Assembly (NCBI GenBank): GCA_964016885.1
Contig: OZ024740.1
Coordinates: 100,378,001 to 100,442,000, forward strand
Direction of reading: 5' to 3'
DNA: 64,000 nt
Source: Eledone cirrhosa
Taxonomy: Eukaryota
Both the position numbers and the translations under genes were made by a program. The notes under the pieces were generated by a model. The model searched no databases. It saw only the letters and a program-made list of their open reading frames with translations, and was not told the origin of the DNA. This document shows positions 1,234-63,002 of the stretch, piece after piece (positions within the stretch are counted from its first letter, which is position 1; every line of letters starts with the position of its first letter).

Positions 1234-2259
1234 AGTGCAATACATAAAATATAAAAACCGTCGATGTTAACCAGTTTATGATATTATTGTTGCTAGCAGA
1301 TGTTTAAAATGTAGAATATTTAGGAACTATTCATTTAAATAAAGTTAACTTAAAGTTTTAGTTATCAAGTTTAATCCAGGATAGGCTTCTGCCTGTGTGA
1401 ATCAGATAATGTGCATTTGCAAGAAATTTCATTATATTGGACCTGCAATGAACTAATTATCTAATTTCGTAGAAAGATTTCAATGCTACTCTTAATTATC
1501 TGACGCGTAATTTCTTAATTGGAACTATTTGCCTATACTAATGGTTAGAAAGAATGTATTGTAAATACTTGTCTCAAACATTCCAGTTGATGGACTAAAT
1601 GAAGACATGATTGTTGGCGTAGCTCCTTCCGCTGCAACATTAGATTTACACAAAAGACATTCAATATTTTTGACTCCTAGTCTGTTTAACTAGCCCTATA
1701 ATTGAATAAATTCTAGTCATGCAATTGAGACACAAAATCCAGAGTATATATATTTCTGTTGTCAGGGAAAAGTGTAAACTCACCTATGTCATTGGTGCTC
1801 TCCTATCATTGATCTTGTCCACATGGGATATATCTGTGAGAGCCCTACCTCTGGCCAGAAAACTTAGCAGTTCAAACCACAAACACTTCTGGCAAGTCAC
1901 AATTTCCTTGCATTTTCCAAGCATCTGATCATTAATCACTGGCTCTATAACTTCTAATGGTGTCATAGAGGAGCCTTGATCAACATTCAAACCCTTCCCT
2001 CTCCATGACCTTAGGGCACAGAGAACCAGAATGAATCTGGTAATGCAGTCTATATAATGCAGTATTAAGTCTGCCAATTCACTGCATTACTAAGCATGTA
2101 CTGGAATATAAATGTGTTTAAGTCCAAGTTGTGATTGAACCAATTATTACCAACACATCTCCAAAATGTTGTATGTACTTCCAGTTCTGGAGGCGAAGTT
2201 ATAATTCCTATTATGAAGTTTATTTTCAACCATTTCTTTTTGTGTACTACAGTTTTATA

Positions 2260-2420
2260 AATTGGCAGAGATGATAGAACGTCAGATAGAGTGCATTGTG
2301 GCATTCATTCCAGCCCTCTGCTCTCAGTTCAAATCGTGTCACAGTCACCTTTGCCTGTCATCCATTCGAGATTGATAAAAAAACGTACCAGTCTAGTACT
2401 GGAGTTGATTTGTCCTCTGT
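2260..2420 (+). mobile_element. Degenerate tRNA-derived SINE (MetaSINE-like)
   Basis: TTGGCAGAG...AGTTCAAATC...CTTTGCCTGTCATCCATTCGAGATTGATAAAAAAACGTACCAGT resembles the clearer copies at 43870 and 59265. Confidence 0.6.
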
Positions 2421-3139
2421 ATCTCTTTGTCACTTCCCTTCTCTCACTCTCTTTCCTTCACTGGGAAAAATTGGCTATACTCAGGCCTGGAGAGATGATG
2501 GGCTCTGCCAGGTTTTAAAATGCCCAAGTCATGCTATATGTTGATGTGGCACCCTTATGACTCCCTTAGGAGTTATGGGTCCATACCATAGCATACCATA
2601 CTACAATTTGGTATTGAAAGTGTTGTGTTGTGAGTGGTAAATAGTCAGAATGACAGTAACCTAATATTACTTGACATTATAGTCTTTTATTGGTGTTAAA
2701 TATTCAGAAGCATAGTAGCATAATGCATCTTTGAAAATGTTTGCATTGATTAATCTAAAGTACCAGGCACATTTAACAACAATATATCTGAAGTGTAGTT
2801 TTATTATCTACGAAGTGAAGCAAAGCAGTTCTAATGCCAATCATCTTTAGGTTTGAGTCATCAAATGAAAATAAATGTCTATCAGCAAGATTGATGATTA
2901 ATTATAACTTTGTTAATAGCGAAGTTGGAATGATAGAGCTAAACCAGTATTTAGTTGTATTTTACATGGTTATCCATTCAATATACATTAATGTTGTAAT
3001 AATCTATACACAAATAGAGAGGATTTGACCAGCATAACGTTAATAAACTGCTCAATGTAGAACAATTACAGTAATTCTTCTCATATGCAGAATAGGATTT
3101 AGATAAGATGATTCAGAATTGCTGTAATTTCTAACGTGA

Positions 3140-3500
3140 CTTTGCTCAGTTTTCTAGAGCTTCCTTCATGAGATCAATTGCTATAGGTATATAATATATT
3201 TCTCTTTCGGATCTTGTTAGAACTATTGATCCAAGAGTAAGTGATAATACTGCCTGAAACACCAAAGCTAACCAAGTCTGAAGTGGACATTTTAAGCAAA
3301 GTTCTTTGACAATTGAGAATTTTTGTTTTTGTCTGAGTACAATGAAACCATTAAAAGAAAAAAAAAACAATTTCATACGCTCTTTTTCTGTGTCATCTTT
3401 GATTGCTGTGAACTTACACAAGTAGCATATGCATTGAGCTTTAGCAGCAATTCATTGGTTGATTCTCCTTGGTTTTGTTTTAGCTTAAAACTAATCTGAG
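3140..3500 (-). pseudogene. Possible highly decayed Ty3/gypsy gag remnant
   Basis: Frameshifted translation KQNQGESTNELLLKL...CKF...F.NG...LRQK resembles the gag pattern Q..GES...L..LA..C.F; recognised by eye only. Confidence 0.3.
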
Positions 3501-5698
3501 ATAAGTAGTTATTGTTTCGATAGCATAGTTTAAATTTTCAAATGAACAATCTCGAATTGTAGTATAAATGGCATATTTGCTTATTGCTGTGTTGGGTTTT
3601 TACTTATTTCTATTTTTAAACCCTTTACAATGAATGTGATTTGTAATATAAATAAGATTAAAAAAGGAAAAAAGAGAGGGAATAAGGAAGAAAAAGGGGA
3701 TAATAATAAAGAAAAAACAATAGAAGTTGGGAGAAGAACCACACATTCAATCACACACCATAAGTAGAACTGAAGTCCCCTCTAATAAATTGTAGCGTCT
3801 CAAATGAGACATCTACGTCTTATTCAGGGAGAAAAGGTGTCTTTTGATGATTAAGTTTTGGTCTGTATGGTGAGTGAAGTGTTCTGCATTCATGCAGAAA
3901 AATAATTCATGAAGACCTGTGCAGTCAAGGAGTTTGCCGTGATGAGATTTCAATCCTCCAGACATCAGCCATAGATTTTCTCCATGGGTAGCGGATCAAC
4001 CCAGTACCCTGAATATTTGGCACTCACAGAAAGTAGGTGGCACCTTGAGAATTGATCAGATTGATTAATGAGCGTGTCAAAAATGTCTCCCAACCATGAA
4101 TTGTCTCAGACTCAACTTCAGTCAACTATCCTCTGTATCAGGAACTGAAAAACCTACCTCCTCTCTCTGTTGTACTAGTCCATTTGGGAGACGAGGTCAT
4201 GTTACTCACACGAGAAGAACAAGCATGGATGAAGGAAATAAAGCATGAAAGAGACAGAGATGAACATTTGTGTATATCTAAGACTCTAAATGCAGCCTAA
4301 CATTTGGAATCTGGAGCGAGTGTGACATTAACCAAACATCTTTCAATTTAATGATTACATTGATGCTACATGATGTAAACAATTTTGGCTTAACGAGTTC
4401 AAGCTAAAGTAATCTAAAATGAGTTTTTAGCTAAACTGTATTAGCCAATAGGTACTAAATTTTGTTGGCATGTAGAACCTGAAAAAAAGAGTGCATTATC
4501 TGCTAAACAGACAATGACAGCATCTATTTGTATTTTCTATTAAAACATATTCTATACATAAAACTATTCGGTACTTATATTTATTCTAGAAAATAATATA
4601 TTTACAAAATTTGTTCTCTGAAAAGTAGTTTTAATAAAATGATGGTTCAATGAAAAGTCACCCAATAAAAAAGTTATTTAGTAAAGCATTGTGGTAAACA
4701 GTCGGTTCTATAAAACATCATTCCACCAAACAGTTTGATGAAATACTATTTTGATAAAAGTCATCCAATGAAATGCACCATGACTTTTATCTCTGTCCTC
4801 AACCAATACTGGTATAATGTCATGTCAAATGCTTGTTGCTAGACCATACTAAACATATTTAATCTCTGATCCTTCAAAATGGTGAGATGTCAAAATGTTC
4901 TTGAGAGGTTTGAGCTGACTAATAAGTATCCATAAGTTTCTCTGATTTACAATATCCTTACATATTCATATCTAAATCAATGTTATTTAGTTTATCTTAA
5001 ATGTGAGGTTTTCCTTGCCCTTTAGTGCAAATATATTTGTGTAAGAGATTTTATCAATTTTTTCAACATTGTGCTCTTTTCTTTTTAAAGCTAAAAAACT
5101 GATGTAAATTTTTTTTTTTTTGTACTGCATGATTTGCAAATGCAAAGGATCTTCCTTTAATAAGCTTATATTCACAACCATAAAATTTGCCTTCAGAAAA
5201 TCTATTCATTTTAACAAGGTGATAAGCATCAGCAACTCTTGGCTTTACTTGATACAAAATATTGACTCTGAAAACGTGACATCATCTGTTCTTTGAATTT
5301 CTCACATACCTTGAATGACATATTTTGTAATTGCAGCTGTTGCAACATTCTTGATCTATGGGATGTATGATAAACTCTTTCAATAAATCAATTTTATCAG
5401 TTTCTTTTTAATATTTTGACCACTTTGGCCAAGCTTATTTATTGGGAAATATTAAAATATAGATGAATAGAGAGAATGACTGACAAGCCATGTTGATGTT
5501 TTCTTTCTAGTTTGTCATTTACTTCTTGGAAGAGGTATTCTCAATTTGAATGACTTGGACCACTACATTGGCAACAAGGTAATTCAAAACGTATAATATA
5601 TAAATCGTTGTCAAAAATGGTAGAATGAAAACAAAGTATTTCAAAGGAATACGATTGGCTTACTTCAAATTTTCTTCTCAACTCCATTTTATTTTTAA

Positions 5699-8600
5699 CT
5701 AGCAGTGGTACCCGGCGTTGCACGGGATAAGGTATTTTGGAACCCGGGCCGCCAACAGACCTAATCGTGGAAAAACTGCATGCCTCGACAATATGTAAAG
5801 AAAATAAACACAATACTCTGATGGCTGGATAATCTGTAAGATTTTCCTTGATGGAGTAAGGAGTTTAGGAATTCTGGTAGAAAGTTTACCACTTCATTTG
5901 GATCGGGTATCGTGTCAACAGACTTGTAGTTGCGAAGAGTACCTGGAAGGGAATCCAGTAGCAGGTCGTTGAAATTGTTAACAGTGGCGTTTTTTGGAGC
6001 ATGCACTGCTCTTTCGCACAACAATGCGTGGTCCTGGAAATGGTGTTGCAAATTCGGAAACACTTTGTCTTTGAGCTCTGCTGCAGAATTAACAGAAGTC
6101 GCAAATAGCCACACTTCCAGTTCACCTTCAGCATCAAGAGGCATGTTGCTGTCGCTAAGCTTCAGAATGTCCCGTGCAAAGTCAGCGGACGTTTGGTCAC
6201 CGTGCAATTGAGCCCTCATGTTGGTTGTAAGAATCAGTTTCCTGACATGGCGCCATAGGGAGATGACATCAGACATGCTTGGACCTCGTCAGCTTGTGTA
6301 CCTTGGAAATTACTTGGGAATTACAGGGATGGTCTACCTGAAGTCGCCTGTTGGTCTGCTTGAAGTCACTCCTTTGTGCGCCATGGTGCACTCATCCCAG
6401 ACAATGAGTTGACACCATTTCAAGACTTGGCCCTGGTAGGAATTCCTGCTGATGCTGCAAGTGGGTGTTTCTGACTTCGTTAAATTGAGGGGCAATTTAA
6501 AAGTGGAGTGTGCAGTCCTACCATTGGGCAGCAAAGTTGCAACAATCCCCAAAGAGGCCACAGCAACCGCAATGTCATTGTGCATCCTGACTTTTGCAAG
6601 GAGAAGCCTTGTTAAAAATGTTTTGCCCGTCCCTCTAGGAGCATCCAGAAAGAACATACCTCCTTTTCCTTGGCGCACATGGTCAGCAACAATGGTGTAG
6701 ACACGACGTTGATCCGGAAGTAGTTGTGGTTCAGTTTCATGGATGCACATGGCAAGGTCATCGACGTTGTAGGATGTTTCCCGAAGAAGAGCTGTAGGAA
6801 GTACGTTTGACCCGGTACGGAGCGTTTGGGGCAGACCATATGACGGCAAATAATTTCCACCGAGTGATGTAACTCTGTTCTCAATGTCAATCAAAGCACA
6901 ATTGAAGACCTCATCGCTGGTTCGTTCCATTTGAGGGTATTTCAGTTGCACCCGGCGTTTGTAGTCTTCGGATAAGTCTTCTTTGAACTGCAGCCACAAA
7001 GACATGGGATAGCTTAGTTCGCAAGTTTGCAGCATTACTGAAAATAGAGCTCGTAAACGCATAGGCGATTGAGATGCAATGGCTTCGAATTAAGTCACTT
7101 TCCACTGCGCTCGTCTTCCAGCAGGCCACACTTGAAGCAACCTTTCCTGTAAGTGCTGCACACGCAGCCATCAAAAGTTTGGAGGTTGTGAAAAGATTGG
7201 GGTCCTCTTACCTCATGCAGCAGAAGGCAAATGTAGAAGCACTCCTGTTGGTTCGAGTGCACAGTGTAAACCCTCCCAAGGCAACTGTCAAACTTTATGC
7301 CGGGATGTCCTTCAACAGGTTGTCCTGCCTTTCTGCACACTCATTGTTGCTTATTCCATGTGTAGTAGAACGGCACCTGGGGGTAAAGCAGAGTCTGTGA
7401 AAAAGATTTGGTCCGACATAGTTTAAAAAATCCAGTGAGGGTTGTTTCTCGTGGGTCATCCACCATATTGGGCAGCATTAGCGTCGGTGAAGTAGACCCT
7501 TTGACCATTCTGAAGGTGAACCGCAAGCTGTACAATAGCAGGGTGCCTTTGGTGTATTGGGAAGCCAAACATCCGCCAGAAAGCCTCGTTGCTACTGATG
7601 TTACGGCCAATTCGGTATTGCGAGAACTCATCACGGCTGTGTCCTGCTGTAGACCGAACATAGCAGCGTTTGAACCCTTATTCACGTAGTTGCAGATGTA
7701 CTTGATTGACTTGACAGAGCTACAGAATTCCACATTGATGTGGGCACCGAAGGTCTTCGAAAGAAGTGGGCAGTAGGGCACTATCCATCGGCTGTCGACC
7801 TAGTGTTGTCCAACTGTCGCTGTGAAACCACCGTCGTCTGTATAACGGTTATCCGTTCATGCCAGTCTGGGTTCCTTTAAGGAACTTTCAGGGAAAAATT
7901 TTGCTGCAGACATTGTTGCTCAGGTAAGGTGAGCTCAAATAGAAACCACGCCCACATGGACCACGTACCATGTTTGCCGTCACTATTTCGTAGAGGTCTT
8001 TGTCCACAGATGGATCAGGAAGCTCGGCGGAGATGGCCTTGTCAATGTCGTTTGGAGATATTCTTGCAGACAGGCAGATGAGGATATGGGCATGTGGTAG
8101 GCCCCTCTTCTGCCACTCGACGGTTTACATCTCGCATATAACTGGTCCGAAGACTTGTCCCCTCTTGATGAGCTCCATCAGGTTGATAAGCTTCAGCCGA
8201 AAGACTCTAGCCAGGAGGTCATGCCTGTCTTTGGCCTGTTGCCCTTGGAACAGTTCTGCAGCAATCTCCTTCCACTTAGGATTGCAAATGAAAGTGATGA
8301 ACATGATGCTGAATGTAAGTCATGGCATCTTGCGTCCTCTCGTGCATGTAGCGCGGACTTCCGGTGAAAGTGGATGGAAGGATGCAGAGTTTTCCTACGC
8401 TGGCTGGCGCTGCACCATTGGTGAGGGGATCTCGGAGGTGGATGTAGCTCTCAGACCGCAATTGCCTCTGGTGTGACCGGATGAAGCACAACCTTTCCAA
8501 TGCCATTTTCGCACACATGTCGACGGCAAATTGCTGAAAGAGGTCTTTTGATTAGTGCAAGTGGTTGAATGAGTTGTGGCGTACCATGATGCAGTAAGAG

Positions 8601-24687: not shown

Positions 24688-26950
24688 AATAATAATAATT
24701 TCATTTATTAGCCACAAGGGCCGACATGTAGGGGACAATTCAAAGACAGGGACAGTGGGGGTTTACAATAAGGTCGAGTAAAAGTGCACAATGGCAAGAT
24801 TAATTTAACAATGAAGATATACACATATAAAATAAACTACGCATAAATATAACAAAATAAATTCCCCGATAGGGGGTGGACGACCCTGGGGTGATTCAGG
24901 TACCCCACCAATTCTGAACCACCCTGCGCTTCTAGGGCACCCAGGGACCCCTCTCCTCAAGTTAGCTAGCCTATAGGCGCATGGTCAGAGTAGGCCCATA
25001 CACACGGGCCATTCTCGCCACATTCATCCACCTTTTAGACAATATACTGGGAAGCAGCACTTCTCTCTCCACCCTCACCTTCCATTCCAGATCAAACTTG
25101 AAGAAGTTGATGATGGATTGGCCGAAGAGAAAAGTGTCTGTCTTCAGTCCATTTAATCTGGTCCACCATATAACTGCTTTCGTAACTGCCACCAGACAGA
25201 GGAACATTTCCTGCTCTTCCTGACCTAAGGAAGGCGGCGAGTCGATATTCACTATGGACTCGGCCGATAGCCGGATTCGTTCCACACGCGACAGTAGTTG
25301 TTCGACATAACTCCACAAGTCAGTAATGCACAGACATTGGACAAGTGCGTGCAGAACGGTTTCGTCATTCTGTGCGCATCTTGGGCAGGTCCGTCTGACA
25401 GTAATTCCGTGCCTGTAGAGTTTATCCTGAACCGGCAGTTCCCCCCGGTAGCACTGCCAAGCGAGGTGTTTCTGGAAATAGTCCATCGTACCCGGCCCGA
25501 CATTCCTCCGGTACAGACTGGCCAGTTCGACTTCGTCGAAACCCAAAGCTTCTCCGAGTGCGTGTTCGCACTTTCCCACCCCTAATCCTCTATAGAACTC
25601 GAGAGTGGAAGTTACACTGATCGCATTGCCCGCTTGGTAGAGAGCAGTGAGTGCCTGGCAACATTCCAGGTGCCAGTCACCCAGTCTCAGTCTCTTCCTT
25701 ACCCAGGAATGCAGCTCAGTCAAAGAGACGAGCTGCGGAAAGGCCCGTCTGATAAACGGCGACCACACTTGTTCACCGTTTAGGCAGAATATCTGGAGAT
25801 GTCGCAGCCTCAATGCATGTATGTTTGCGCATCATTAGCCACGGCATGCCCAGCCCCGCAGATGGACCGCCTCACCAACGGAACTTGTCCCCTCCACAAG
25901 AATTAGAAGAGGAGCCGTTCCAACTTGACAAGGCGCGGACGGGGGCAAGGCACGACGGTCAGGCCGTAGTAGATGACGGACGCGATGTACGCATTCGCCA
26001 CCTCCGCGCGACCTTTCAGTGATAGCTTCCTCCCAGCCCATTTTTTGGTGAGACTGGCTACTCTGTTCGTTACCTCGTCCCAATTCTTTTCCACCTGGAG
26101 GTCTGGTCCGAACCAAACCCCGAGCGTCTTTACCAGTCCGTCCGTTCATATTCCTTCAAAGAGGTGCCGATCACCTCTATTTCTCAGGTGTCCGACACCA
26201 TTACGGTGATGTCGCCCGCATAAGCCGACACCTCCTTTCCACGTCCCGGTTCGAGCGGGATGCCCTGACACAGCTCCAGCTTCCGCAGTAAAGGCTCGTG
26301 AGTCAATACGTACAGAAGGGAAGAGAGAGAGAGCACCCTTGACGGACCGATTGGGAGAGCCGAAATAGCTCCGAGAGGTGGCCATTAACCTTGACCACCG
26401 AGCGTGTGCCGCTGTGCATTGCAGCGATCCAGCTTCTGAAGACAGGGCAGAAGCCAGCTGCTTTGAGGACAAACTCCACATACCGATGGTCGACCCTATC
26501 GAATACTTTCGATTGATCTAAATTGATCAGTGCCCCACCGAAGCCAGGTTTACACGCTACCCTCCCTATGATGTATCGCATGAGGTGGAGATTGTCGTGG
26601 CTGGGATTGACCTGGCTGGGATTGCGCAAGTTCGCACAAGTGTGCGCCTCCCCAACCAAATCCTCGACAACAAGCGCCAATCTCTTTGCTAACACCTTGG
26701 CCAAAATCTTAAACTCTGTGTTGAGCAGAGTTATGGGCCTGAACTTGTCTAATGTATCCCTCTTGTTCTCGTCTTTCCTTATCAGCGTCAACACTCCCCT
26801 GCTCACAGAACTGGGAATACTCCCATTCTGCTGCCAGTTGCAGTAGAGTGCTTCGAGGAGATCGGAGAACAAGTCTGGCATATTTACATAAAGCTCGTAG
26901 GGCAGGCCATCCAAACTGGGTGACTTGCGCCTCATGCAGCCGACAAGGGC
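24688..26950 (-). mobile_element. L1/Tx1-like LINE, 5'-truncated (RT, CCHC region, 3' UTR)
   Basis: KSPSLDGLPYELY, FRPITLLNTEFKILAK, DQSKVFDRVDH, SVRQGCSLS, KNWDEVT, CPRCAQNDETVLHALVQC; AATAAA and (ATT)n tail at ~24690. Confidence 0.9.
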
Positions 26951-29260
26951 GACTTGCTAGTCACCTCGTTCCAGTTTTTGTCCAGCTGGAGGTCCGGTCC
27001 GAATCAGACCCCGAGCAATTTAACTGGTCCGTCCGTCCACCGCCCCACGACGCTGTCGGACGGCATGGACTTACCTCTCCAGGTGCCGAGCTGCAAGCCC
27101 ACCGACATTTCCTGGTTTATCTTTGCTCCTGTCTCCTTGAGAGCCATGCGGAGCATCTGGACGTGTCTGCTGCTCGATACGACCACGGCTACGTCGTCGG
27201 CGTAAGCCCGTCGGATTTCCCGCACCCTAGTTCGCGTGGGACGCCCCTCATTGCCCCCAGTTTGTGCAGTAATGGCTCGAGAGCCAATACGTACAATAGG
27301 GGCGAGAGGGGACAACCTTGATGGACTGAGCGCATCATGCTGTACGACTGCCACAGGTTCACTCTCACAACTGAGCAGATGTGGCTGTACATTGCAGCGA
27401 TCAAACCCCTGAAAACGGGCCCGAAACTCCCTGCCCCGAGGAACGTCGCCAGGTACCAATGGACGACCCTATTGAATGCTTTGAATTGATCCAAGTTGAT
27501 CAAGGCCCCACCCGTACCAGGTTCCTTAACCACCCTCTCTATGATGTAGTATCGCATGAGGCGGAGGTTGTCGTGTATGGCTAACACCCTGGCCAAAATC
27601 TTGAACTCTGCGTTTAGCAGGGTTATGGGCCTGAAGTTATCGATAACTTCCCCCATGTTCGGGTCTTTTCTCAGCAGTGCCATAGCTCCCCGGCTCACAG
27701 AACTAAGAGTGCTCCCGTTCTGCTGCCAGTTGCAGTAGACGTCTGCCAAGAGGTCACCGAACAACTCTGGCATAAATGCACAAAGCTCGTAGGGCAGACA
27801 ATCCAAACCTGGCGATTTACCCCTCGTGCAGTTAGCCATCGCTTCCCGTATTTCACCAGCTGTTATTGGCTTTTCGCAACACTGTGCTGCGGTCGTCGAG
27901 AGCCGAGGCAGTCCATCGAGGTATGCACTGAAGTCCATACCCCGATCCAGCCCGCCGCTACTCCCGAACAGTTCAGCAAAGTGTTGCTGAAAAGCTTCAC
28001 ACATCTGCTCGGGTTCAAGCAACACGTGCCCGTTTTTGTCAGACAAAGACCGAATTGTGGCTTCGTTGCCACGTCGCGCCTCAGCCACCCAGGCCCATTA
28101 GACGGCTTTTGTCCCCTCGTGTTTTAGAGCACGCGCTCTAGCTCTGACAACGCAGCCTTCGTGTTATGCGTTGAAGAATTGGTCGAGTGCCAATCTCGCC
28201 GCATGCACGTCGTTTGCGATGCCTGTGCTAAACGCCTCTTCTAGCTTTCTGACTAGCTCTCCCTCTACTCTATTTTTCTCTATCACTAGTCCTTTGGTAA
28301 ACCTAATCGACTCTACTTTAATTGCCCTTTTCAGGGCGAACCACCACCTGTCGTTGACGACCGGTCCCGTCAACGCCCGCTTAATTAATACGCTAATCCG
28401 GTCTCTGTAGGCTTTGCGCACCGTGAAAGACGCGTTCAGCTTCCAGTAACCAGGCCCTTGTCTATGGAGTCTGTCTATGTCGATCTCACAGATCACAAAT
28501 TTGTGGTCTGTGTAGTCGACTATTTTAAATTGTGGACAACTTATACTAGCCTTATCTAGTTCTCTGCAGAATACCCTATCGAGATACGATCTGGATGACA
28601 GGATGCAGTTTGTCCATGTCCATGTCCACATTGGCACATTCGGGTGGTCCAGTCGATACCTGTCAGACAATTCAAAACGTCTGAGCAGGTTGGTGAGGCT
28701 CTTGCACCCTCCTCCCTATCCACTAGCCCCACACAATCCCAGCGTGCATCCAAGATACCGTTCCAGTCGCCCACTAACACTAAAGAGCGGGACGTTCCAA
28801 GAAAGGTCTCTAGACGTCTAAAGAAATCTGGCCGTCCTGTCCCTGTCGGGGCATAGACGGCTACTAGCCTGAAAGCGTTGCCTTCAGTGCCGCTTACATC
28901 CAGCACCACCGACTTACCTTCTGGGTCCAGGAAGATGGTCCGTATGGCGAGACCCAAACCTTTCCGAAAAAACACAGCCACTCCGCCCCACGCTCCCGGA
29001 CGGTTCGGAGATGCATACACCTCGTAACCATCGAAGATCGGTGCGAAGGTTTGCGTTTCAGAGATTCTCGTCTCGCTAATGGCCACCACATCTATGTTTA
29101 GTGACCTGAGGTTGTTAAGCAAGTGACCCTGCTTCCAAACCGAGCTCAAGCCACACACGTTTACACTTCCGATCCTGAATACGGCCATGTTGGGTGAGGA
29201 ACGGGGCAAGTGAGAAAGGATCACTTACCTTGATCGTCTGGTGAAGGGACCGTTGAATCG
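26951..29260 (-). mobile_element. L1/Tx1-like LINE ORF2, 5' part (APE endonuclease + RT), 3'-truncated
   Basis: APE motifs RIGSVNVCGL, ISETR, VYAP, GDWN, SYLDR, TDH, GPGYWKLN; RT motifs KSPGLDCLP, QGCPLSP, AYADDV; frameshifted. Confidence 0.92.
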
Positions 29261-47372: not shown

Positions 47373-49825
47373 TCTCAGTCATTGATGTTATTTAAGTAGA
47401 AAGTTTGTTGAAATGAATATCAAGTCGCTACCTGCAGCCTCAGATATTCAGGACATATCGGAGGGTTCTTGCTGTTCCCAGCAAGCATGCCTTTTGAAGT
47501 GTTCCAAAAAGTGGGGCTGGACTAATCTTCTTTAACCATCCTTGGAAAACTCTTTGAGATAGTACCTAGTGCGCCTATGATAATCGGGATGACCTTGACT
47601 TCATGGCTGTTCCAAATCCTTTTTACCTCCCACTTTAAGTCCTGGTATTGGTTAATTTTCTCCCTCTCCTTTTCTTGCACTCTCGTGTCAAATGGGCAGG
47701 CTACATCTACAATCAGGCACGATCTTTTTTCCTTGTCCAAAACCAACAGGTCATGTCTATTGTGTTCTAATTTCTTGTCCGTCTGTATCCTAAAATCCCA
47801 TAGGAGCTTCACCTGATCGTTTTCTATCACCGACTCTGGCTTATGCTCATACCACTTCTCAGAATGTGGTAAATTGTTTACTTTGCTTAGATGCCAGTGG
47901 ATCACCCGGCCTAACACATCATGTCTCCAGCCGTTATAGTGAGTCTGGGCTAGGTGTTTACACTTGGATACAATGTGAGCCACAGTCTTCTCTCTCTCTC
48001 CACAGATCCTACACAGAGGGCTAGCCTCCTCCTTGTAAATATGGTGTTTCACCCACTTCATTCTGAGGGCCTGCTCTTGCGCAGCCATTAGCATTCCTTC
48101 TGTAGCCTTTTTAAGGTCTCCACTTTTTACCCAGTTCCATGTCTGTGGATCTGTAAATTCAGTTTTCTTAAAGAAGGTACTATGAAGGGATTTTTCATGA
48201 AGGTTGCTCTTCCTCCTTGTTGTTATTTCCTCCTTGGACATCCCCTGGTCTATTGTCTTCTCCTTCAGTACAATTTTGAGCATTGGCTCCCTACTGTCAG
48301 TCACGTATTTGTGCAGGTTCTTTTTCTCCATCTGAACACAGTCCTCTATGCTGATAAGACCTCTTCCACCTTCAGATCTCCTTAAGTAGAGTCTATCGAC
48401 ATCACTCCTCTTGTGGTACATGTTGTAGATAGTCAATAGCTTCCTAGTCTTCCTATCCATTTCTTTTTGTTCAGCAACATTCCATTTCAGAATTCCCGCA
48501 CTGTACCTAATAATAGACGCAGCTTGAGAATTCACTGCACTTATGACATTCCTATTATTTAGATGTGATTTTAATACGCTCCTTACTCTCCTAATGTACT
48601 CAGATCTTATCAATTCCTTTATTTTTTTGCTCTTGATGTCATCTGCCTCCAGAACACCTAAATATTTGTATCCTTCTTCAGTGTCAATTTCCTTTATCAT
48701 CTCACCTGTTGGTACCTGGATTCCATTGCTTCTGCTCAATTTACCCCTCTTCATCACTAGGACTCCACACTTATTAATACCAAATTCCATACATATATCA
48801 TTGCTGAAAATACGGACAGTGTCAACAAGTACATCCAACTCCTGTCACTCTTCCCAAAGAGTTTAAGATCGTCCATGAAGAAGTGGTGGTTGATGGTAAG
48901 CTCTCCTTTTACCAACTTGTATCCTGCTCTCATTTTTGCAATATAACGGTCAGGTCAAGGACAAACAGCAGAGGGGACAAACTATCTCCCTGGAAGATAC
49001 CTCTCTAGATCGTCATGCCTCCCAAGGATTCTCCACCCAATGTTAACTCTGTTTTCCAGGACTTCATACTTTTGCTCAACAACAGTCTGATATTATCTGC
49101 CACCCTGAAGATCTCTAGGCTTTTGGTTATCCAAGAATGAGGTACCATGTCGAATGCCTTTTTGTAATCTATCCATCCCATGGCAAGACCAGTATCTCTC
49201 CTCTTGCAATTCCTCATTACCATCTTATCAATATGTAACTGGTCTTTTGTACCACGGGACTTCTTTCGGCATCCTTTCTGTTCATCTGGTAACAAGTTGT
49301 TTATGTGGATGTGATGGTAGATTTCCTCAGACACAATGCTTGTTAACAGTTTCCACATTATGGACAGACATGTGATAGGTCTATAGTTGGTAACATCATT
49401 ACCCTTGATTCGGTCTTTCATTACCAGAACTGTGGTACCTTTTGTCAACCACTCTGGTACCTCACCCGACATCAAGCAGTCATTGAACATGGTTGTCAGT
49501 TTCGGGTGGAGGGATGTTATATTTTAATCCAATACTGCTGTACACCATCTGAGCCTGGTGATTCCCAGTTTGTTAGTTTTTTGGCCTGCTCTTTAAGAGT
49601 TTCAACTGTGATACTCAAATCAGTTTGTTGGTGTACTTGTTCACTAATCTCCTTTTGTACTGTCTCAATCCACACAGCCTGATTATTATGTTCAACATCC
49701 TGCTCCAATATTCCTTTCCAGAATGTCTTAATCTGTTCCGCCACAGGGATCAAGTCGTTCCCTCTTTCTTTCCCTTCAAGCTGTCCAAACAACACCTTCT
49801 GGTTGTTACCAAACGTGCATATTCT
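47371..49825 (-). mobile_element. R4/Dong-like non-LTR retrotransposon (family 2, copy 2)
   Basis: Highly similar to 36215-38650; a 438-aa ORF carries YKYLG, CRIC..HIVSKC, RHD, WYEH, DVACPFD and IIIGALG. Confidence 0.92.
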
Positions 49826-49864
49826 TCCCTTATATATTTTTTATTATTATATATATTATTATTA

Positions 49865-51725
49865 TGGAGGCCTCTTGGCGGACGTCTACTGCAACTGGCA
49901 ACAGAACGGAAGAATTCCCAGCTCTGTGAGCCAAGGAGTGGTGGCGCTGCTGAGAAAGGACCCGAACAAGGGGGATAACATAGATAATTTCAGGCCCATA
50001 ACTCTGCTAAACACAGAGTTTAACATTTTGGCCAAGGTGCTAGCAAAGAGGTTGGCGCTTGTCGTTGGTGGTCTGTTGGGAGAGGCGCAGACATGCACCA
50101 TTCCAAACAGATCGATCCACGACAACCTCCACCTCATGCGATACATCGTGGAGAGGGTAGCTAGGGTACCTGGCACGCGTGGGTCCTTGATAAATTTAGA
50201 TCAGTCGAAAGCTTTTCATAGGGTCGACCATCGTTATCTGGCGGCAGTCCTGTGGGCAGTTGGCTTTGGGCCCGTCTTCAGAGGCTGGATCGCTGCCATG
50301 CACAGTGACATCTGCTCTGTAGTGAGAGTGAATGGTCACCTTTCAGAACTGTTCAACATCATGCGCTCGGTCTGCCAAGGATGTCCCCTCTCGTCCCTCT
50401 TGTACGTATTGACTCTCGAGCCATTACTACACAAACTGGAGACGTTAAGGGGGGGTGGGGCATGTCAACATATGCGGACGATGTCACCATAGTGGTGTCG
50501 AACGCCAAACACATTGAGGCGATCGGCATTACACTAAGAGAATACAAAGTGGTGACAGGAGCAATGATCAACCATCAAATGTTGGTGGGCCTGCTGCTTG
50601 GCACCTGGAGAGGCAGGTCCATGCCATCCAACAGCTTCGTCGGGTGCTGGACGGACGGACCGGTTAAATTGCTAGGGGTCTGGTTCGGTCCGGACCTCCA
50701 GACGGACAAAAACTGGGACGAGGTGACGAGTAGGGTGGTTTCCCTCACCCAGAAATGGGCGGGGAGGAAGCTATCCCTGAAAGGTCGAGTGGAGGTGGCT
50801 AACGCATACATTGCGTCCGTCATCTACTACCGCCTGACCGTCATGCATTGTCCTAAGCCTGGCTTGACATTGCTGGAGTGTTTGCTCTTTCAGTTCTTGT
50901 GGCTGATGATGCGCAGACACGCGCTCAGGCTACGACATCTCCACCTCTTCCTCGACGGTGATCAGGTGTGGTCCCCGTTTGCTAGACGCGTCTTTACCCA
51001 GCTTGTCTCCTGGAGGTGCCGTCAGCTGGGCATGTCCAAGATGCACGCAGGGCGACGAAACCGTCCTGCACGCACTCATACAGTGTCCGAGCATTGCTAA
51101 CTTGTGGGTTTATGTCGATCACCTGCTGTCGCATGTAGGACGGATCCGGCTATCAGCTGAGTCCATCGTGAGGATTGCCCTGCCCTCTTCCTTTAGCCTC
51201 GAAGAGCAGGCAATTTTTATCTGTCTGGTGGCCATGGCGAAAGAGATAGTATGGTGGATGTGTCTGAAAGGGCTGAAGACGAGCACTTACCTCTTCGGTG
51301 ATGCCCTGATTAACTTTTTCCAATTTCATTTGAAAAGGAAAATCAGGGTAGAGAGGGAAGTGCTCTCTTCCCAGCATTTTGTTGAAAGATGGGTGATAGA
51401 AGCAAGAATGGCCTGGGTCAATGGGCCTACTCTGAGTTTGTGCCTGTAAATTGAAGGTGGAAAACTGGGAGAGGGAACTTGCCCTGGCGGTGAGGGTCAC
51501 CGTGGCTTTTTTAATGGGCTTTCTCCGCGATGGCCCTCGGAAGTCTCCCCGCTATTGGGGATTTTTCATTGTTTCTTCTTTTGTTACATCCTCTGTTTTT
51601 GATTTTTTTTACACGCAGAAATGCCCATTTGTACCGTCCTGTATTGTCCTGTATTGTCCTGTACTGTCCTTAATGTTTTACTTTGTGTAAACCCTTGTGG
51701 TTAATAAAGAAATCATTATTATTAT
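49865..51725 (+). mobile_element. L1/Tx1-like LINE, 5'-truncated with internal deletions
   Basis: NFRPITLLNTE, DQSKAFHRVDH, QGCPLS, TYADDV, CPRC...ETVLHALIQC; AATAAAGAAATCATTATT tail; (TTA)n on both sides. Confidence 0.92.
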
Positions 51726-54719: not shown

Positions 54720-57700
54720 ATCCGCAAGCTACCAAACATCCATGCAAAGCTTCAATACAGAGACAGGTTGCATACACACGGCCCCGCAAAAATTCACACC
54801 ATTGTACGAGTGATGACAAATGCCCCAAACTCCGAGTTGGAAACATCAATGTAAACTAAAAAAAGGAAGAGCAGGAGATATTGTAGAGATGCTAGAGCGA
54901 AAGGAAATTGATGTATGCTGTGTGCAAGAGAGACTAGATGGAGAGGAGAGTCCGCTAGAGTCCTCGTAGGCAAGAGTCAATGATACAAATTTTTCTGGGT
55001 GGGAAATGACAACGGGATGGGAGGGGTAGGTATACTATTAGCTGACAAATGGGTAGATAAGGTAATCTCAGTGAACAGGGTGAATGCAAGAATCATTAAA
55101 CTCAGACTAGCCCTAAATAAAACAATTAACACAATAATATCAGCTTACAAACCCCAATCGGGGTTGCCAGACGAACTTAAGGATAGATTTTATGAGTCCC
55201 TAATGCACACTACTGACCTAAAAAGCGGCAATGACTTCCTAATCATTGCAGGAGATTTCAACAGATACGTTGGTAAACACCGTGGCGGCTTCTATAGAGT
55301 CCATGAAGGCCATGTGTTTGGCAAAAGAAATGAAGAAGGCCACAGGCTTCTGGAATTCTGCGACGCCAATGACATGTCGATATGTAACACAAACTTCAAA
55401 AAACCCGAAAACCATCTGATCACCTAAAGATAAGGGGAGCATTCTAGTCAGAGAGATTTTATCCTCATCAGAGGACGTGATAGATGGACGGTTGTAAACA
55501 CAAAATCCTTCCCTGGTGAGGAATGTACCTCCCGAGATAACTTAGTTGTCAGCGACCTCGCTGTCAAAACTAGACCAACTTGGAAACAGAAGCCAACCTG
55601 GAGAAGAAAGATCCGGAAGCTAAAAAACCCCTCAGTCAGTAACAGGTTTAAAGATATTCTACTCAACGCCTATGGCAGTAAATAAGAGCAGATAGAGACA
55701 TTCAATGTAATGGAGTACTGGAAGTTCCTAAAAAATAACTTACTAAAGACGACGGACGAGAAATGTGGTAGGAGCAAGTCCACAGGGAGGAGGAGAGGGA
55801 CTTGGTGGTGGAACAATAAGGTAGATGAGGCAGTTAAGGCTAAGAGACAGGCATGGAAAGAATGGAAGAACAGGGGTAGCAGGGTACATTACATAGAGAC
55901 CAGGAGGGAAGCTAGGTGACAAGTATACTTAGCTAGAAGGGAAGCAGAGGATAGAAAATTCAAGCATATTTTGCAACGGAGGACCAGAAACAGGAGGTGT
56001 TCAAGATTTCAAGGCAGTATGTCAGAGAGAATTGTGATATCATTGGAGAGAAGTGTATTCGGAATGATAATGGTGAGCTTCCCCTCAAAAGTGCCAAGAA
56101 GAAAGCTACGTGGAAGAGCCATTATGAAAGATTACTAAACGAGGAGAATGCATGGGGAAAAAAGACCCTACACCAAGTGGACCTATAGAGGGGCCAGCAG
56201 TACAAATCAGCAGCAACGTAATAAGTAAGGCAATCAAAGATATGAAGACAGGGAAGGCAACCGGTCCATCGAGTATAGCTGCAGAGATGCTGAAGGCATC
56301 TGAGTCGATATATCACACCATAAGTACACGTAGTGTTAACCAGGTAATACTAGAAGGTGTCATACCAAAGGATTGGTGCAGTAGCATCATTGTCAACTGC
56401 TACAAAGTTAAATGTGATGCACTAGATAGAGGAAACTATAGAGGTATAAAGCTGATGGACCAGGTCATGAAAGTAACAGAAAGAGTTATAGCACAGTTGA
56501 TTAGGGATAGGGTGAAACTAGATGAGATGCAATTTGGGTTTGTACCAGGAAAAGGCACCACTGACGCCCTCTTCCTTGTGAGGCAGTTACAGGAAAAGTA
56601 CCTAGCTAAAAGTAAGCTCCTCTACCTGGCATTCGTCGATCTAGAAAAAGCCTTCGACGGAGTCCCCTGTACTATAATCTGGTGGGCTCTTAGAAAATTA
56701 GGAGTAGACGAATGGCTTGTGAAAGCTTTACAAGCCATGTATAGAGGAGCAGTCAGAAAATTTAGGGTTAGAAATGACTATAGCGAGGAATTTAGCATAC
56801 AGGTCGGCGTCCACCAGGGCTCTGTTCTTAGCCCTCTCCTGTTCATTATAGTTTTGCAGGCAATAATGGAGGAGTTTAAAACCGGATGCCCATGGGAACT
56901 CCTGTATGCGGATGATCTCGCACTTATAGCTGAATCCATGATGGAACTAGAGAAGAAATTCCAAACATAGAAGCAGGGACCTGAAAGAAGGGGTCTCAAA
57001 GTCAACCTGACAAAGACTAAGGTCCTTGTAAGTAGACGAAAAAACAGAACACAAATCCCCTCAGAGAAATGGCCTTGCTCAGTATGTAGGATAGGTGTAG
57101 GTAGGAACTCCATCCTCTGCCCCAAATGCAAACAATGGGTACACAAGATATGTAGTGGGATCTCAGGAAGTTTAACTAAGAATGTAGGCTTCACATGTAG
57201 CATTTGCGCTTGGACAGCAAGCAGCAAACGACCACAGGAAACAAGCACCACCAAACTCTGGGAGGGCTCTGTAGAAACACTAGACAGCTTCTGATTCCTA
57301 GGTGACCGAATTAGCAGCAGAGGTGGGTGTTCGGAATGTACAACAACTAGGGTAAGAACGGAATAGAAGTTCAGGGAGCTACTTCCACTGCTAGCTGCAA
57401 AAGGCTTTTCCCTCAAAATGAAAGGCAGACTGTATGATGTGTGTATACGAATAGCTATGTTATATGGAAGTGAAACCTGGGCGCTGTCTGTAGAAGCCAT
57501 GCGCAGATTAGAAAGAAACGAAGCCTGCATGCTCCGATGGATGTGTAATAGTAATATATGCGAACAGCAAAGTATAAACGAATTGAGAGAGAGACGAGCA
57601 TAAGAGGAATCAAATGCTGTGTGCATGAGAGGAGGTTACGTTGGTATGGACATGTGATGTGTATGAAGGATGACAGTTGCATAAAAAGGTGCAGAGCACT

Positions 57701-58837: not shown

Positions 58838-58945
58838 TTCCCGCCGAGGTTTACTTTACCTTTCATCCTTACGGGGTCGATAAAATAAAGTACCAGTAAT
58901 GCACTGGGTATTTGCTGGCCTTGTGCCTAAAGTAGAAACAATTAT
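58838..58945 (+). mobile_element. 5'-truncated MetaSINE-like copy
   Basis: CCTTTCATCCTTACGGGGTCGATAAAATAAAGTACCAGTAATGCACTGG core. Confidence 0.85.
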
Positions 58946-59261
58946 GTTGTTATCCTTGGTTCGGGTTGTTCTATCGCGGTTCTTCCAACGGTATAATTTC
59001 CGGAAGTGAGTTTGAGATTCATATTAAGGGGAGCTAATGTGAAAGGGGAGGTAACTAGCGATTAAATTGTATATGCAAGTAACAAGAAGGAAACATGGAA
59101 GAAGAAGTATAGCTGTGTACAGTTTCAATTAGTTAAATACTTTGTGCTAATATACATTATCTTGTGTTACAAATGAATCACTTTTATATAGTGTTATTTA
59201 TTTATATTTAATTTTAGATACAGTCTATACTCCTATAATACATTAAAGGTCTCATTATATT

Positions 59262-59398
59262 GTTACGTCCCTTTACGGTCTGAGTTCAAATCCCGCCGAG
59301 GTTTACTTTGCCTTTCATCCTTACTATGTCGATAAAATAAAGTACCAGTAATGCACTGAGTAATTGCTGGCCTTGTGCCTAAAGTAGAAACAATTATA
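59262..59398 (+). mobile_element. 5'-truncated MetaSINE-like copy
   Basis: B box GAGTTCAAATCCC plus core. Confidence 0.85.
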
Positions 59399-60147
59399 TT
59401 GTTATCTATCTATTAATGAGTAAAATATAATATAAACTATAAGTAATCTATAGTAAAAATGTATAGTTGTTTACAGGTCCAATTAGTTAAATCCCTTGTG
59501 TTATTAATATACATTACATTATGTTATATGTAAATCCCTTATATATAATGCTATTAGTTTATATATTTTTAATTATAAATATAATTTATTTTTCTATAAT
59601 ACATTAAATGCCTCATCTTATTATTATCTATCCATTACTGCATATAATATATCGAAGTTATAGTAATTATATTAAATGGTGGTAATTTTATGTTTATTTC
59701 TAATAGTTATTGAAAAGTATAATGTTTGAGATAAATAGGAGATAGGTAGAGGAATGAGCTGATTCTAGAGTGTGATGATATGAGGGTAATTATATGCGGA
59801 TGAGACCTAGAGGTGAAGTGTTAATGGTGGTGAGGAATTCAGATTTGACATTGTTATATACTATTAGCTAGGTTTAAAGCTATGGAAAGAGTGTCGGTGG
59901 TAGTGCTGGCACATTGAAAAAAACCTCTGGTTTTCTATTTAGGAGGTGTAGTTTCGAATAGATTATTAGAAGACAGAGGTTACACAATTTATATTCCTGC
60001 TCTGTAAAATATCTGATGTATTTACATTGAGCTATTTTTCTTACTGGTAATAAGGTAGTAATATATTACTGACCTTTCCTGTTTATAGTTGTATATAGTG
60101 TATGCATAACTATAAATAGTATCATTATTATATATATATATATATAT

Positions 60148-60263
60148 AGTTCAAATCCCGCCAAGGTTAACTTTGCCTTTCATCCTTACGGGGTCGATAA
60201 AATAAAGTACCAGTAATACACTGGGTAGTTGGTGGCCTTGTGCCAAAAGTAGAAACAATTATT
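60148..60263 (+). mobile_element. 5'-truncated MetaSINE-like copy
   Basis: AGTTCAAATCCCGCC plus core, between (TA)n tracts. Confidence 0.85.
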
Positions 60264-60420
60264 ATATATATATAAAGGTTAAAATACTGGAGCGTGTTGG
60301 AGTTAAACACCCTCTTCGTATTATAGAAATGACAGTAAAAGGTATAGCTCAATGTAGTTAAACAGAGCCGAAAAATTAAGAGAGTAAAACAAAGAAGCCT
60401 TCAATACATCAAAAGTCTTT

Positions 60421-60466
60421 ATTAGCCGACAATATTTCGTCCTATTAAGGACTCATCAGGGCAATT
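60421..60466 (-). ncRNA. Type I hammerhead ribozyme motif (minus strand)
   Basis: AATTGCC-CTGATGA-GTCC-TTAATA-GGAC-GAAA-TATTGTC-GGCTAAT; predicted GUC cleavage triplet at 60430-60428. Confidence 0.8.
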
Positions 60467-60635
60467 CAAACAACAAGAAGTAATATGGTTCCTAATGTCA
60501 CATACATCCTTAGTAATTTTCATTATATATTTTTATTATTTTTATTATATATTTTTGCAATACTTTAGTATATGTACACTCCATATTCTTCGGAGCTTCT
60601 GGTTTGTATCTGCCGTTATTACTTCTTGTTGTTTG

Positions 60636-60681
60636 AATTGCCCTGATGAGTCCTTAATAGGACGAAACATTGTCGGCTAAT
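60636..60681 (+). ncRNA. Type I hammerhead ribozyme motif (plus strand)
   Basis: AATTGCC-CTGATGA-GTCC-TTAATA-GGAC-GAAA-CATTGTC-GGCTAAT. Canonical CUGAUGA/GAAA core, G-C-based 4-bp stem II, short stem III, GUC cleavage after 60674, stem I GCC/GGC; AATAAA follows. Confidence 0.85.
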
Positions 60682-60722
60682 AAAGACTTTTGATGTATTG
60701 AAGGCTTCTTTGTTTTACTCTC

Positions 60723-60766
<44 letters not shown>

Positions 60767-60767
<1 letters not shown>

Positions 60768-61237
60768 CATACGTCAAAACGGCCGGTCTCAAAAGTGAAA
60801 CTAAGTTTTGACAGTTACGTACACGTTATAAGAGTTATTTAAATTTATATATATAAAATAAAGGAGCAAATAAGAGCATGATATGAAGTCAGTCATGTGT
60901 GTGTGTATATATGTGTGTGTGTGTGTGTAAAACGAATGTAAAAGTGCACACACATATACACTTATATATGCACACATACACACTATAATTTATACACGTG
61001 TGTGTGTATATATGTGTGTGTGTGTAAAATTCTAGGAAACCTTATCTATGCCCTACATATATTCTTTTACATTCGTTTACACACACACACACATATATAC
61101 ACACACACATGACTGACTTCATATCATGCTCTTATGTGCTCCTTTATTTTATATATATAAATTTAAATAACTCTTATAACGTGTACGTAACTGTCAAAAA
61201 TTAGTTTCACTTTTGGGACCGGCCGTTTTGACGTATG

Positions 61238-61238
<1 letters not shown>
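60767..61238. mobile_element. Fold-back (MITE-like or Penelope-derived) element with ~175-bp inverted arms in (TA)n
   Basis: 60767-60944 is the near-perfect reverse complement of 61064-61238; long (TA)n on both sides. Confidence 0.88.
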
Positions 61239-61605: not shown

Positions 61606-61671
61606 AAATTATGTATATAAATGTATATATCGATACAAACACACACTCACACACATACATATATATATATA

Positions 61672-62858
61672 CAGGTGTTGGACAAAATAATGGAAAGACC
61701 TTAAAATTTCAAACAAATTTATTTTAATATTGGGTAGGATCGCCGTTGGCAGTAATTACAGCTTGAATTCTACGAGGTATGGACTCGTACAAAGTTTGAA
61801 TAGTTTCCAAAGAAATTTGTGTCCATTCTTCAGGTAACAGTCTCCAGTTCTTGTAGTGATGATGGTGGAGGATATCGACTCCTTACTTGTTTTTCTAAAA
61901 TGCCCCATAAATGTTCAATAATATTGAGATCTGGGGACTGTGGTGGCCAGATAAGATGTTCAACTTCACTAGAATGTTCTTCGTGCCATTCAATAACAGC
62001 TTTAACTGTGTGAATTGGTGCATTATCATCCTGAAAGATTGCGTTTCCCTCGGGAAACAGTTCCGCAACCATAGGATGAATTTGATCAAATAAAATGCTT
62101 AAATAGTCTTGACTATTAATTCTGCCATGAAGCGAAACCATTGGGCCGGCGGATTTCCAAGATATATCCCCCCAGATCATTACAGATCCTACTCCATGAT
62201 TAACAGTTGGAAGAAGGCAGTCTGGGTCAAATGCTTCTTTTGGTTGTCTCCACACGTATACTCGGCCGGTGGTCAGAAATAAGGTAAAGGATGACTCGTC
62301 CGAGAAAATAACATTCTTCCACTGCTTTAGGGACCAATTCTGTAGGTTTTTACTCGACTCTAAACGCTTTGCAACATTTTTCTTTTTGAAAGTAGTGGCT
62401 TTGTGGAAACTGGGTTCTCGAGATGGTCATGAAGCTCTGCAGTAATTTTGGGAGCTGTACTTTTGTGATCCTTTCTAACAATTCACGTAAGAATTCGATG
62501 GTCCCTATCTGAAAGTTTTGGTTTTCTTCCAGAGTTTTGTTTCGACGAGGAGGTTTTTTCCTCTTTCTCAAAGGCTGACATTACATTCGAGACAGTACTT
62601 CTTGATACACCAAACATTTCAGCTGTTTTCGTTACACTAGCGCCTACCATACGAGCACCGACAATTTGACCTCTTTGAAAGTCCGATAGATCTGTCATTT
62701 TAATGAATTTTAATTACCTTTTTCTGATGATATCTGAAAAGAAACAGCAATGTTAACAAAACATATTAAGCAACACTAATAATAAATCAAAAACATAAAA
62801 ATAAACAAACTTTTGATGCTATGATGCTAGGTGTTTCCATTATTTTGTCCAATCCCTG
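61672..62858 (-). mobile_element. Tc1/mariner DNA transposon
   Basis: ~30-bp TIRs CAGGTGTTGGACAAAATAATGGAAAGACCT and AGGTGTTTCCATTATTTTGTCCAATCCCTG, with TA on both flanks. Confidence 0.93.
61724..62698 (-). pseudogene. Tc1 transposase (DD34E-type), frameshifted
   Basis: HTH MTDLSDFQRGQIVGARM...FGVSRSTVS, GRKPKLS, VIFSDES, SVMIWG, FQDDNAPIH, WPPQSPDLNIIEHLW. Confidence 0.9.
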
Positions 62859-62959
62859 TATATATATATATATGTATGTAAAAGGTAAACAAAAATAATA
62901 ACACAATTGGTACAGTATATGGAAGGGATATATTAGGTTAACGCTTGATATAAAAGGAA

Positions 62960-63002
62960 GAAGGTTTTAACGTTTCGGACGTTAGTCCTTCATCAGAAGA
63001 AA
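62960..63002 (-). ncRNA. Hammerhead-like motif (Penelope-type variant with an extra A)
   Basis: TT-CTGATGA-A-GGAC-TAAC-GTCC-GAAA-CGTTA-AA; palindromic AACGTT stem III; weak stem I. Confidence 0.55.

Follow-up and report, generated by a model that had tools for sequence, protein, structure and literature searches.

Inverted, 5'-truncated copies of Penelope-like elements (PLEs) were described by Craig et al. (2021; PMC8557442), together with a tail of 30-40 bp that is often present at one end only. In the supplement of that paper, Penelope-13_HM of the Hydra clade appears with a 5'-truncated inverted copy (File S1) and with hammerheads on both strands (File S2). A tail on one of two inverted pLTRs was also reported for bdelloid Penelope elements (PMC3846280). 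Pairs of hammerheads on opposite strands, about 100-700 bp apart and tied to truncated PLEs, were described by Cervera and De la Pena (2014; PMC4209133), according to whom the minimal hammerheads are of low activity and need a dimer; the evidence for dimers is summarised in PMC6765202. The available portion of PMC4209133 contained no rule for the pairing of ends. Retrozymes are head-to-tail arrays with at least two hammerheads on the same strand (bioRxiv 10.64898/2026.07.22.740005). For the Anolis Poseidon element PAc (Frangieh et al. 2024; PMC11167929), both strands are cut and the RT starts at two internal sites with the tail between them; the template is mainly uncleaved RNA, and the ribozyme cleaves only with protein. 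Inverted products were not found to be addressed in the available portion of PMC11167929.

Inverted PLE copies with hammerheads on opposite strands have already been published. In L1 twin priming, a 5' inversion is produced by priming from both target strands and joining at microhomology; its two parts are free of overlap, and the position of the second start varies. In the family described below, in contrast, both starts are fixed and the arms often overlap. No statement of fixed-site twin priming in PLEs, or of a strict pairing of a long with a short end, was found in the literature covered, although subscription papers, early PLE reviews among them, and supplements could hold one.

Layout of the locus and its ribozyme motifs

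The locus lies in a window of 64,000 nt of Eledone cirrhosa DNA (contig OZ024740.1, forward strand, positions 100,378,001 to 100,442,000), to which all five-digit positions refer. The whole unit, about 60274-60727, consists of two 5'-truncated PLE 3' ends placed back to back and joined in a (TA)n tract. Its features and flanks are as follows.

60260-60273, no strand: left (TA)n target, where a dispersed SINE-like repeat (60156-60271, family D8) has its 3' end
60274-60485, minus strand: long-end arm, the 5'-truncated 3' end of a PLE assigned to the Hydra clade, spanning -57 to about +154 as counted from the cleavage site; 98.6% to copy L032 in a comparison that spans 60268-60485, the final bases of which are TA target
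60274-60374, minus strand: tail of about 100 nt, which in tandem copies bridges the short end and the 5' UTR of the next unit
60421-60465, minus strand: left type I hammerhead, predicted cleavage after 60428, C15.2U at 60434; Rfam RF00163, 28.3 bits
60480-60485, no strand: inversion junction, a 6-nt microhomology common to both arms
60480-60727, plus strand: short-end arm, 248 nt of 3' UTR from -194 to +53, "spacer" included; 98-99% colinear with many copies
60637-60681, plus strand: right type I hammerhead, predicted cleavage after 60674, palindromic helix III (3 bp, 1-nt loop); RF00163, 31.7 bits
60728-60766, no strand: right (TA)n target

The inverted arms, 60375-60485 and 60617-60727, are 111 nt long each, 99% complementary and separated by 131 nt, and their sole mismatch is at position 60434. 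This agreed with a preliminary description made from the sequence alone, which had reported 111-bp arms with one differing base. The limits of 60375 and 60727 given there had to be widened, as in the family sequence the left arm extends some 100 nt beyond 60375, as far as about 60274; this end was positioned using the tandem read-through copies L100 and L132. The 131-nt "spacer" is the uninterrupted upstream part of the right arm. Because 60480-60727 forms one continuous stretch in other copies, it is sequence upstream of the ribozyme, i.e. ordinary 3' UTR, and the arm terminates at the fixed short end of the family. Each arm has private sequence that its partner lacks, so neither was copied from the other. 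The full inversion junction was matched nowhere else among the 40 scored of 693 candidates. Within the right (TA)n target no target-site duplication could be distinguished, and none of the contigs from four sequencing runs (type unrecorded) was listed as crossing the locus. Taken alone, the locus is unremarkable transposon debris, arranged in a way that has been described before.

The right motif comprises CUGAUGA (60643-60649), GAAA (60664-60667), the GUC triplet (60672-60674) and AATAAA (60679-60684) on the plus strand, with a stem II of GUCC/GGAC and a 6-nt loop; the left motif is its mirror on the minus strand. Both have the CUGANGA, GAAA and NUH core and the stems I-III of a PLE-type type I hammerhead. 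The earlier view that each arm holds a complete, minimal hammerhead of the Penelope type with a short stem III was thereby confirmed, helix III being palindromic. When the suggested model search was run, Rfam Hammerhead_1 (RF00163) matched both motifs over the whole model, with E values of 8.6e-5 (right) and 0.0012 (left) and scores below the gathering score of 34. Stem II has 4 bp here, in contrast to 7-8 bp in the Schistosoma motifs of PMC4209133. A PDB sequence search gave no match. The generic core pattern alone was not enriched in the window (10 found versus 5.2 expected, a count reached by 7 of 100 shuffles). On the minus strand at 62973-62996, CUGAUGA and GAAA occur again in a compact match that may enclose a short stem.

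The mismatch at 60434 corresponds to position 15.2 in helix III and changes the C-G pair of the right motif to U-G in the left, as had been stated in the preliminary description. It is not evidence of selection: the change is one-sided and present in 3 of the first 100 exact matches, and the arms of other inverted loci differ at 1.5%. A compensatory change was ruled out on the same one-sidedness and frequency, and because the substitution weakens the dimer duplex; the 7-nt near-palindrome of helix III gives a self-duplex of -2.3 kcal/mol in the right and +1.4 kcal/mol in the left variant.

A transcript had been expected either to self-cleave or to fold. The hairpin was supported by a folding energy of -200.2 kcal/mol (z -26.9), which was equalled in none of 100 shuffles. 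An even choice between the two was not: the active fold in the whole unit was predicted to lie 64-67 kcal/mol above the hairpin, with a stem II probability of about 0 in either full transcript. Both motifs face outward, so in a read-through transcript, whichever its strand, the antisense arm is made ahead of the ribozyme. In the monomer, the active fold was predicted to lie 7-8 kcal/mol above the minimum. Both ribozyme copies at this locus are thus predicted to be inactive, paired to each other in the hairpin.

The parent family and selection on its ribozyme

The genome (3.0 Gb in 1,796 contigs) was searched with 60560-60727, which gave 966 candidates, of which 40 were scored, at 98-100%. For a 34-nt ribozyme pattern there were 1,080 exact matches, against none for the reversed control; an 18-nt tail motif had 1,728 exact matches. 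A cognate autonomous Penelope element, a search for which had been suggested, exists: copy L271 contains an open frame of 896 aa (1036-3726) and copy L273 one of 968 aa (817-3723), each with a YRDD RT motif and, at the C terminus, GIY-YIG. These motifs were identified by eye; the match to Pfam PF01541 (GIY-YIG) was weak (E 0.003-0.004, short of the cut-off), and the family frames had no match to Pfam RVT_1. In the genome 119 RT matches were scored. Copy L132, taken at first as intact, was ruled out because its frame has no proper N-terminus. From this tandem copy the unit length was determined as 4,867 bp, with a 3' UTR of about 1.8 kb. In both tandem copies, L100 and L132, the short end is followed by the tail, which leads to the 5' UTR of the next unit.

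The family has the traits of EN+ Penelope-like elements, namely partial-tandem pLTRs, inverted 5'-truncated copies, a tail at one end and a sense-strand pLTR hammerhead. A comparison by eye with the definition and the supplement alignments of PMC8557442 showed the Hydra-clade motifs DKT (ADKTK), a CxCX5C linker (CNCRVSANC) and CxxC/CxH around E and N (CNLC...E...N...CPH), and no CCHH. The RT with C-terminal GIY-YIG and these motifs are shared with Penelope-13_HM and Hydra-1_Obim, as are the (TA)n targets, seen here in the 3' flanks of copies, and the 3' hammerhead with a short palindromic helix III. The family differs from the Hydra clade of PMC8557442 in its unit of 4.87 kb (versus mostly <3 kb) with the long 3' UTR, in its tail of about 100 nt, in an Asn-rich stretch of about 150 aa after the RT thumb, and in the RWK motif, in which RW is present and the third residue is C or R, not K. 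Its hammerhead sequence is unlike that of Hydra-1_Obim, so it is a different family. Judged from these motifs, not from an RT tree, the family is assigned to the Hydra clade, and the locus is almost certainly a 3'-end fragment of such a PLE. It represents a new family within a known clade, in a known layout.

In both L271 and L273 the Asn/Ser-rich stretch lies between the RT thumb and the linker; bdelloid Penelope elements have N-rich inserts that it resembles (PMC3846280). In L273, the tail is adjoined at 817-1030 by an inverted arm, and there the antisense ribozyme and the tail are in frame with the ORF and give 72 extra codons from an upstream ATG. The SINE-like repeat that also borders the locus was observed at one place in the PLE 3' UTR, about 300 nt upstream of the ribozyme, in L101, L119 and L031, and it also adjoins an arm in L109. 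Template switching, considered for the SINE next to the arms in these four copies, was dropped, as the first three share one fixed site; it is likely that a PLE subfamily carries and spreads the repeat.

Selection was assessed on arms picked by their tail, a choice that took no account of the ribozyme; of 100 such arms, the 65 that span the motif were used, and the 35 arms too short for this were left out. Common (subfamily) variants, defined as present in at least 8 arms and counted by site rather than as independent events, occurred at 1 of 44 ribozyme sites and at 25 of 148 flank sites (Fisher p=0.007). The lone variable ribozyme site was N17 (46 U, 16 C, 3 A, 0 G), for which most of the depth in contigs from the four sequencing runs, of unrecorded type, shows U. 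Rare variants were found at 1.5% in the core and 1.3% in the flanks, as expected of dead copies, and the core was intact in 57 of the 65 arms. As the ribozyme is avoided by common variants and not by rare ones, the parent-element ribozyme is likely under selection, with active lineages preserving it while inserted copies decay. The preferential conservation of the core that had been anticipated among genomic copies therefore applies to the family but not to this locus. The pattern provides sequence evidence for selection on a Hydra-clade hammerhead although insertions do not start at the cleavage site.

Insertion ends and their pairing

A first sample comprised the 81 loci holding the first 100 exact ribozyme matches on one contig (C1), and the arm ends were classified by anchors; this sample and the next come mostly from one contig and are biased to young copies. 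Every classified end was followed by TA repeats and lay at one of two distances from the cleavage site, +53 (short) or about +154 (long). Thirty-seven of the 81 loci were inverted with the 3' ends outward and spanned 186-6,052 bp, and all 37 had one short and one long end. The remainder consisted of 27 single short ends, 13 single long ends and 4 unclassified loci; a convergent arrangement occurred in none of the 81. A partner end was undetected in 44 of the 81 loci, some partners being very short or beyond the fetched stretch.

The second sample was chosen on the tail and consisted of 81 tail matches in 78 loci, a few of which also belong to the first sample. Short partners were present in 19 cases, no partner was seen in 56, and 6 were read-through; not one tail-bearing arm among these 81 matches had a long partner. 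A ribozyme anchor on both arms was found in 52 pairs among 133 loci, of which 48 were scored as long plus short and one more was so classified on inspection, while in 3 one arm reads on into the next unit and the outer end lies outside the view. Two rows scored as short plus short (L126 and L133) were actually tail-bearing arms with small deletions. The paired arms differed at 13 of 729 subfamily-diagnostic cells (1.8%), compared with 39% between loci, and overall at 89 of 5,854 sites (1.5%). Both arms of the locus under study belong to one subfamily.

The longer arm of an inverted locus could be either one, and arm lengths differed from locus to locus. Among 35 short tail-bearing arms, 7 started at +47 to +52, adjoining the short-end site, where 1.6 were expected (Poisson p=0.0012). 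No pile-up of 5' ends was present at the ribozyme cleavage site, with none of the 35 arms at +1 and two at +4 (p=0.47); L037, which is outside this sample, starts at -1. The strict long-end/short-end rule is the new part of these results, and it favours twin priming at two RT start sites.

In L082, L090 and L153, scored as single insertions, the 5' junction carried a very short inverted piece of the long end, from a few nt up to 15 nt, so that the count of 37 in 81 may understate how common two-arm insertions are. Four further loci (L253, L231, L209 and L256) held scarcely more than the tail between TA repeats, without a ribozyme.

Origin of the insertion

The locus is very probably a back-to-back insertion into (TA)n of two 5'-truncated copies of a Hydra-clade PLE's 3' end, likely made in one event, with ribozymes that are predicted to be inactive. 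The observed basis for this is the family identity, the RT/GIY-YIG frames, the two fixed ends with one of each per inverted insertion, the same-subfamily arms, the microhomology junction and the TA targets. Twin priming is the probable step by which the two arms were made, held with less assurance than the insertion as such. The endonuclease would cut both strands of TA-rich DNA, and each of the two 3'-OH ends would prime at a site of its own, long-end or short-end, on uncleaved element RNA, which would be tandem or circular. Both cDNAs would end early, and microhomology joining would give the back-to-back product. Two priming sites account directly for the pile-up of tail-only arms at the short-end site. 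At this locus 111 nt were copied twice, and arms that overlap would require strand displacement or else another RNA of the same origin. The ribozyme may act in the tandem transcript of the parent, likely as a dimer or with the help of protein, and would be a passenger here. If the locus were read through, its RNA would fold into a dsRNA stem of 111 bp, from which small RNAs against the family might be made.

PAc offers a parallel for two start sites, with two fixed ends downstream of the hammerhead, the tail between them and AT-rich targets (PMC11167929). Because the ends lie past the cleavage site both in PAc and in this family, the template should be uncleaved. PAc, from which the two-start-site data derive, nevertheless belongs to another PLE clade, and its tail is 30-40 nt long and inside the ORF, whereas the family described here has an untranslated lead-in of about 100 nt.

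Self-priming on antisense RNA with uneven endonuclease resolution, or fold-back of the first cDNA, would also account for the same-subfamily arms and the junction microhomology. Antisense self-priming was proposed for bdelloid Penelope elements from palindromic junctions (PMC3846280), and the tail was ascribed to EN-mediated resolution in PMC8557442. A simple cDNA fold-back is impossible at this locus, however, as the loop-holding arm ends at +53 and the other reaches about +154. The clustering of tail-only arms at the short-end site and the finding that either arm can be the longer argue against both variants, which are unlikely, though by some way the most serious competitors of twin priming. 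An assembly artefact of a repeat is scarcely credible. Inverted PLE structures do hamper assemblies (PMC8557442), and no contig of the four runs was listed across the locus, but the arms differ at one base, each has its private sequence, and 37 of 81 loci obey the same layout rule while their junctions differ.

The preliminary description had taken the locus for a small non-coding retroelement. Movement as a stand-alone non-autonomous retrozyme or fold-back element of about 350-450 bp would suit the young, near-perfect arms and the other small inverted loci, which span 186-572 bp, and non-LTR retrozymes have been argued to derive from PLE pLTRs (bioRxiv 10.64898/2026.07.22.740005). The junction was nevertheless found only here among the 40 scored candidates, inverted copies range from 186 to 6,052 bp with arm lengths individual to each locus, and monomers arrayed head to tail are absent; how a mobile unit of fixed size looks can be seen in the neighbouring repeat at 60767-61238. 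Such a unit is highly improbable. The non-LTR (animal) retrozymes are likewise non-coding and PLE-derived and have a type I hammerhead, but they form head-to-tail arrays, in contrast to the inverted one-off junction here. Membership of that class was ruled out, since the motifs are on opposite strands without an array, and so was the MITE or fold-back transposon class, given the junction unique among those scored, the range of spans and the unequal termini. Retention by the host as a regulatory hairpin, i.e. a small-RNA source or ribozyme switch, is very unlikely too. A 111-bp stem can form from either strand, and about half of the sampled insertions are inverted and could supply much hairpin RNA; against this, the cores gather rare variants like the flanks, and the arm divergence of 1/111 resembles that of other inverted copies; the locus does not stand out in any respect.

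Twin priming at fixed sites may extend beyond this locus. Whether Penelope-type elements routinely integrate in this way, with two RT starts about 100 nt apart on uncleaved RNA, is evenly balanced on the present evidence. If they do, inverted pLTRs and the one-sided tail would be explained together, and genomic copies of the family would record the insertion mechanism of PLEs, the two arms of an insertion being derived from a single source transcript; hundreds of self-silenced ribozyme hairpins could then feed small-RNA control of the family. The family offers roughly a thousand young copies, frames that are intact and a tail of unusual length, so that the way in which PLE inverted repeats and one-sided tails form can be addressed by counts in a genome and is testable in vitro.

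The window abounds in transposon remains. In the same TA tract as the locus lies the fold-back repeat at 60767-61238, with 160-nt arms that are 98% complementary. It is a separate, high-copy MITE-like repeat of fixed size (about 435-505 bp), often present as paired ends; a genome search gave 619 candidates, of which 40 were scored, at 98-100%. A Tc1/mariner-like element at 61651-62879 has inverted ends of about 51 nt in TA and a DDE_3 fragment at 61833-62423. The SINE-like repeat is present in three copies (58839-58954, 59291-59406 and 60156-60271), the last of which had very high sequencing-run depth. Fragments of PIF1-like helicase (Helitron-like) and LINE-type RT were located at 6337-7086, 24974-25828, 27192-28094, 49686-50489 and 56131-56967.
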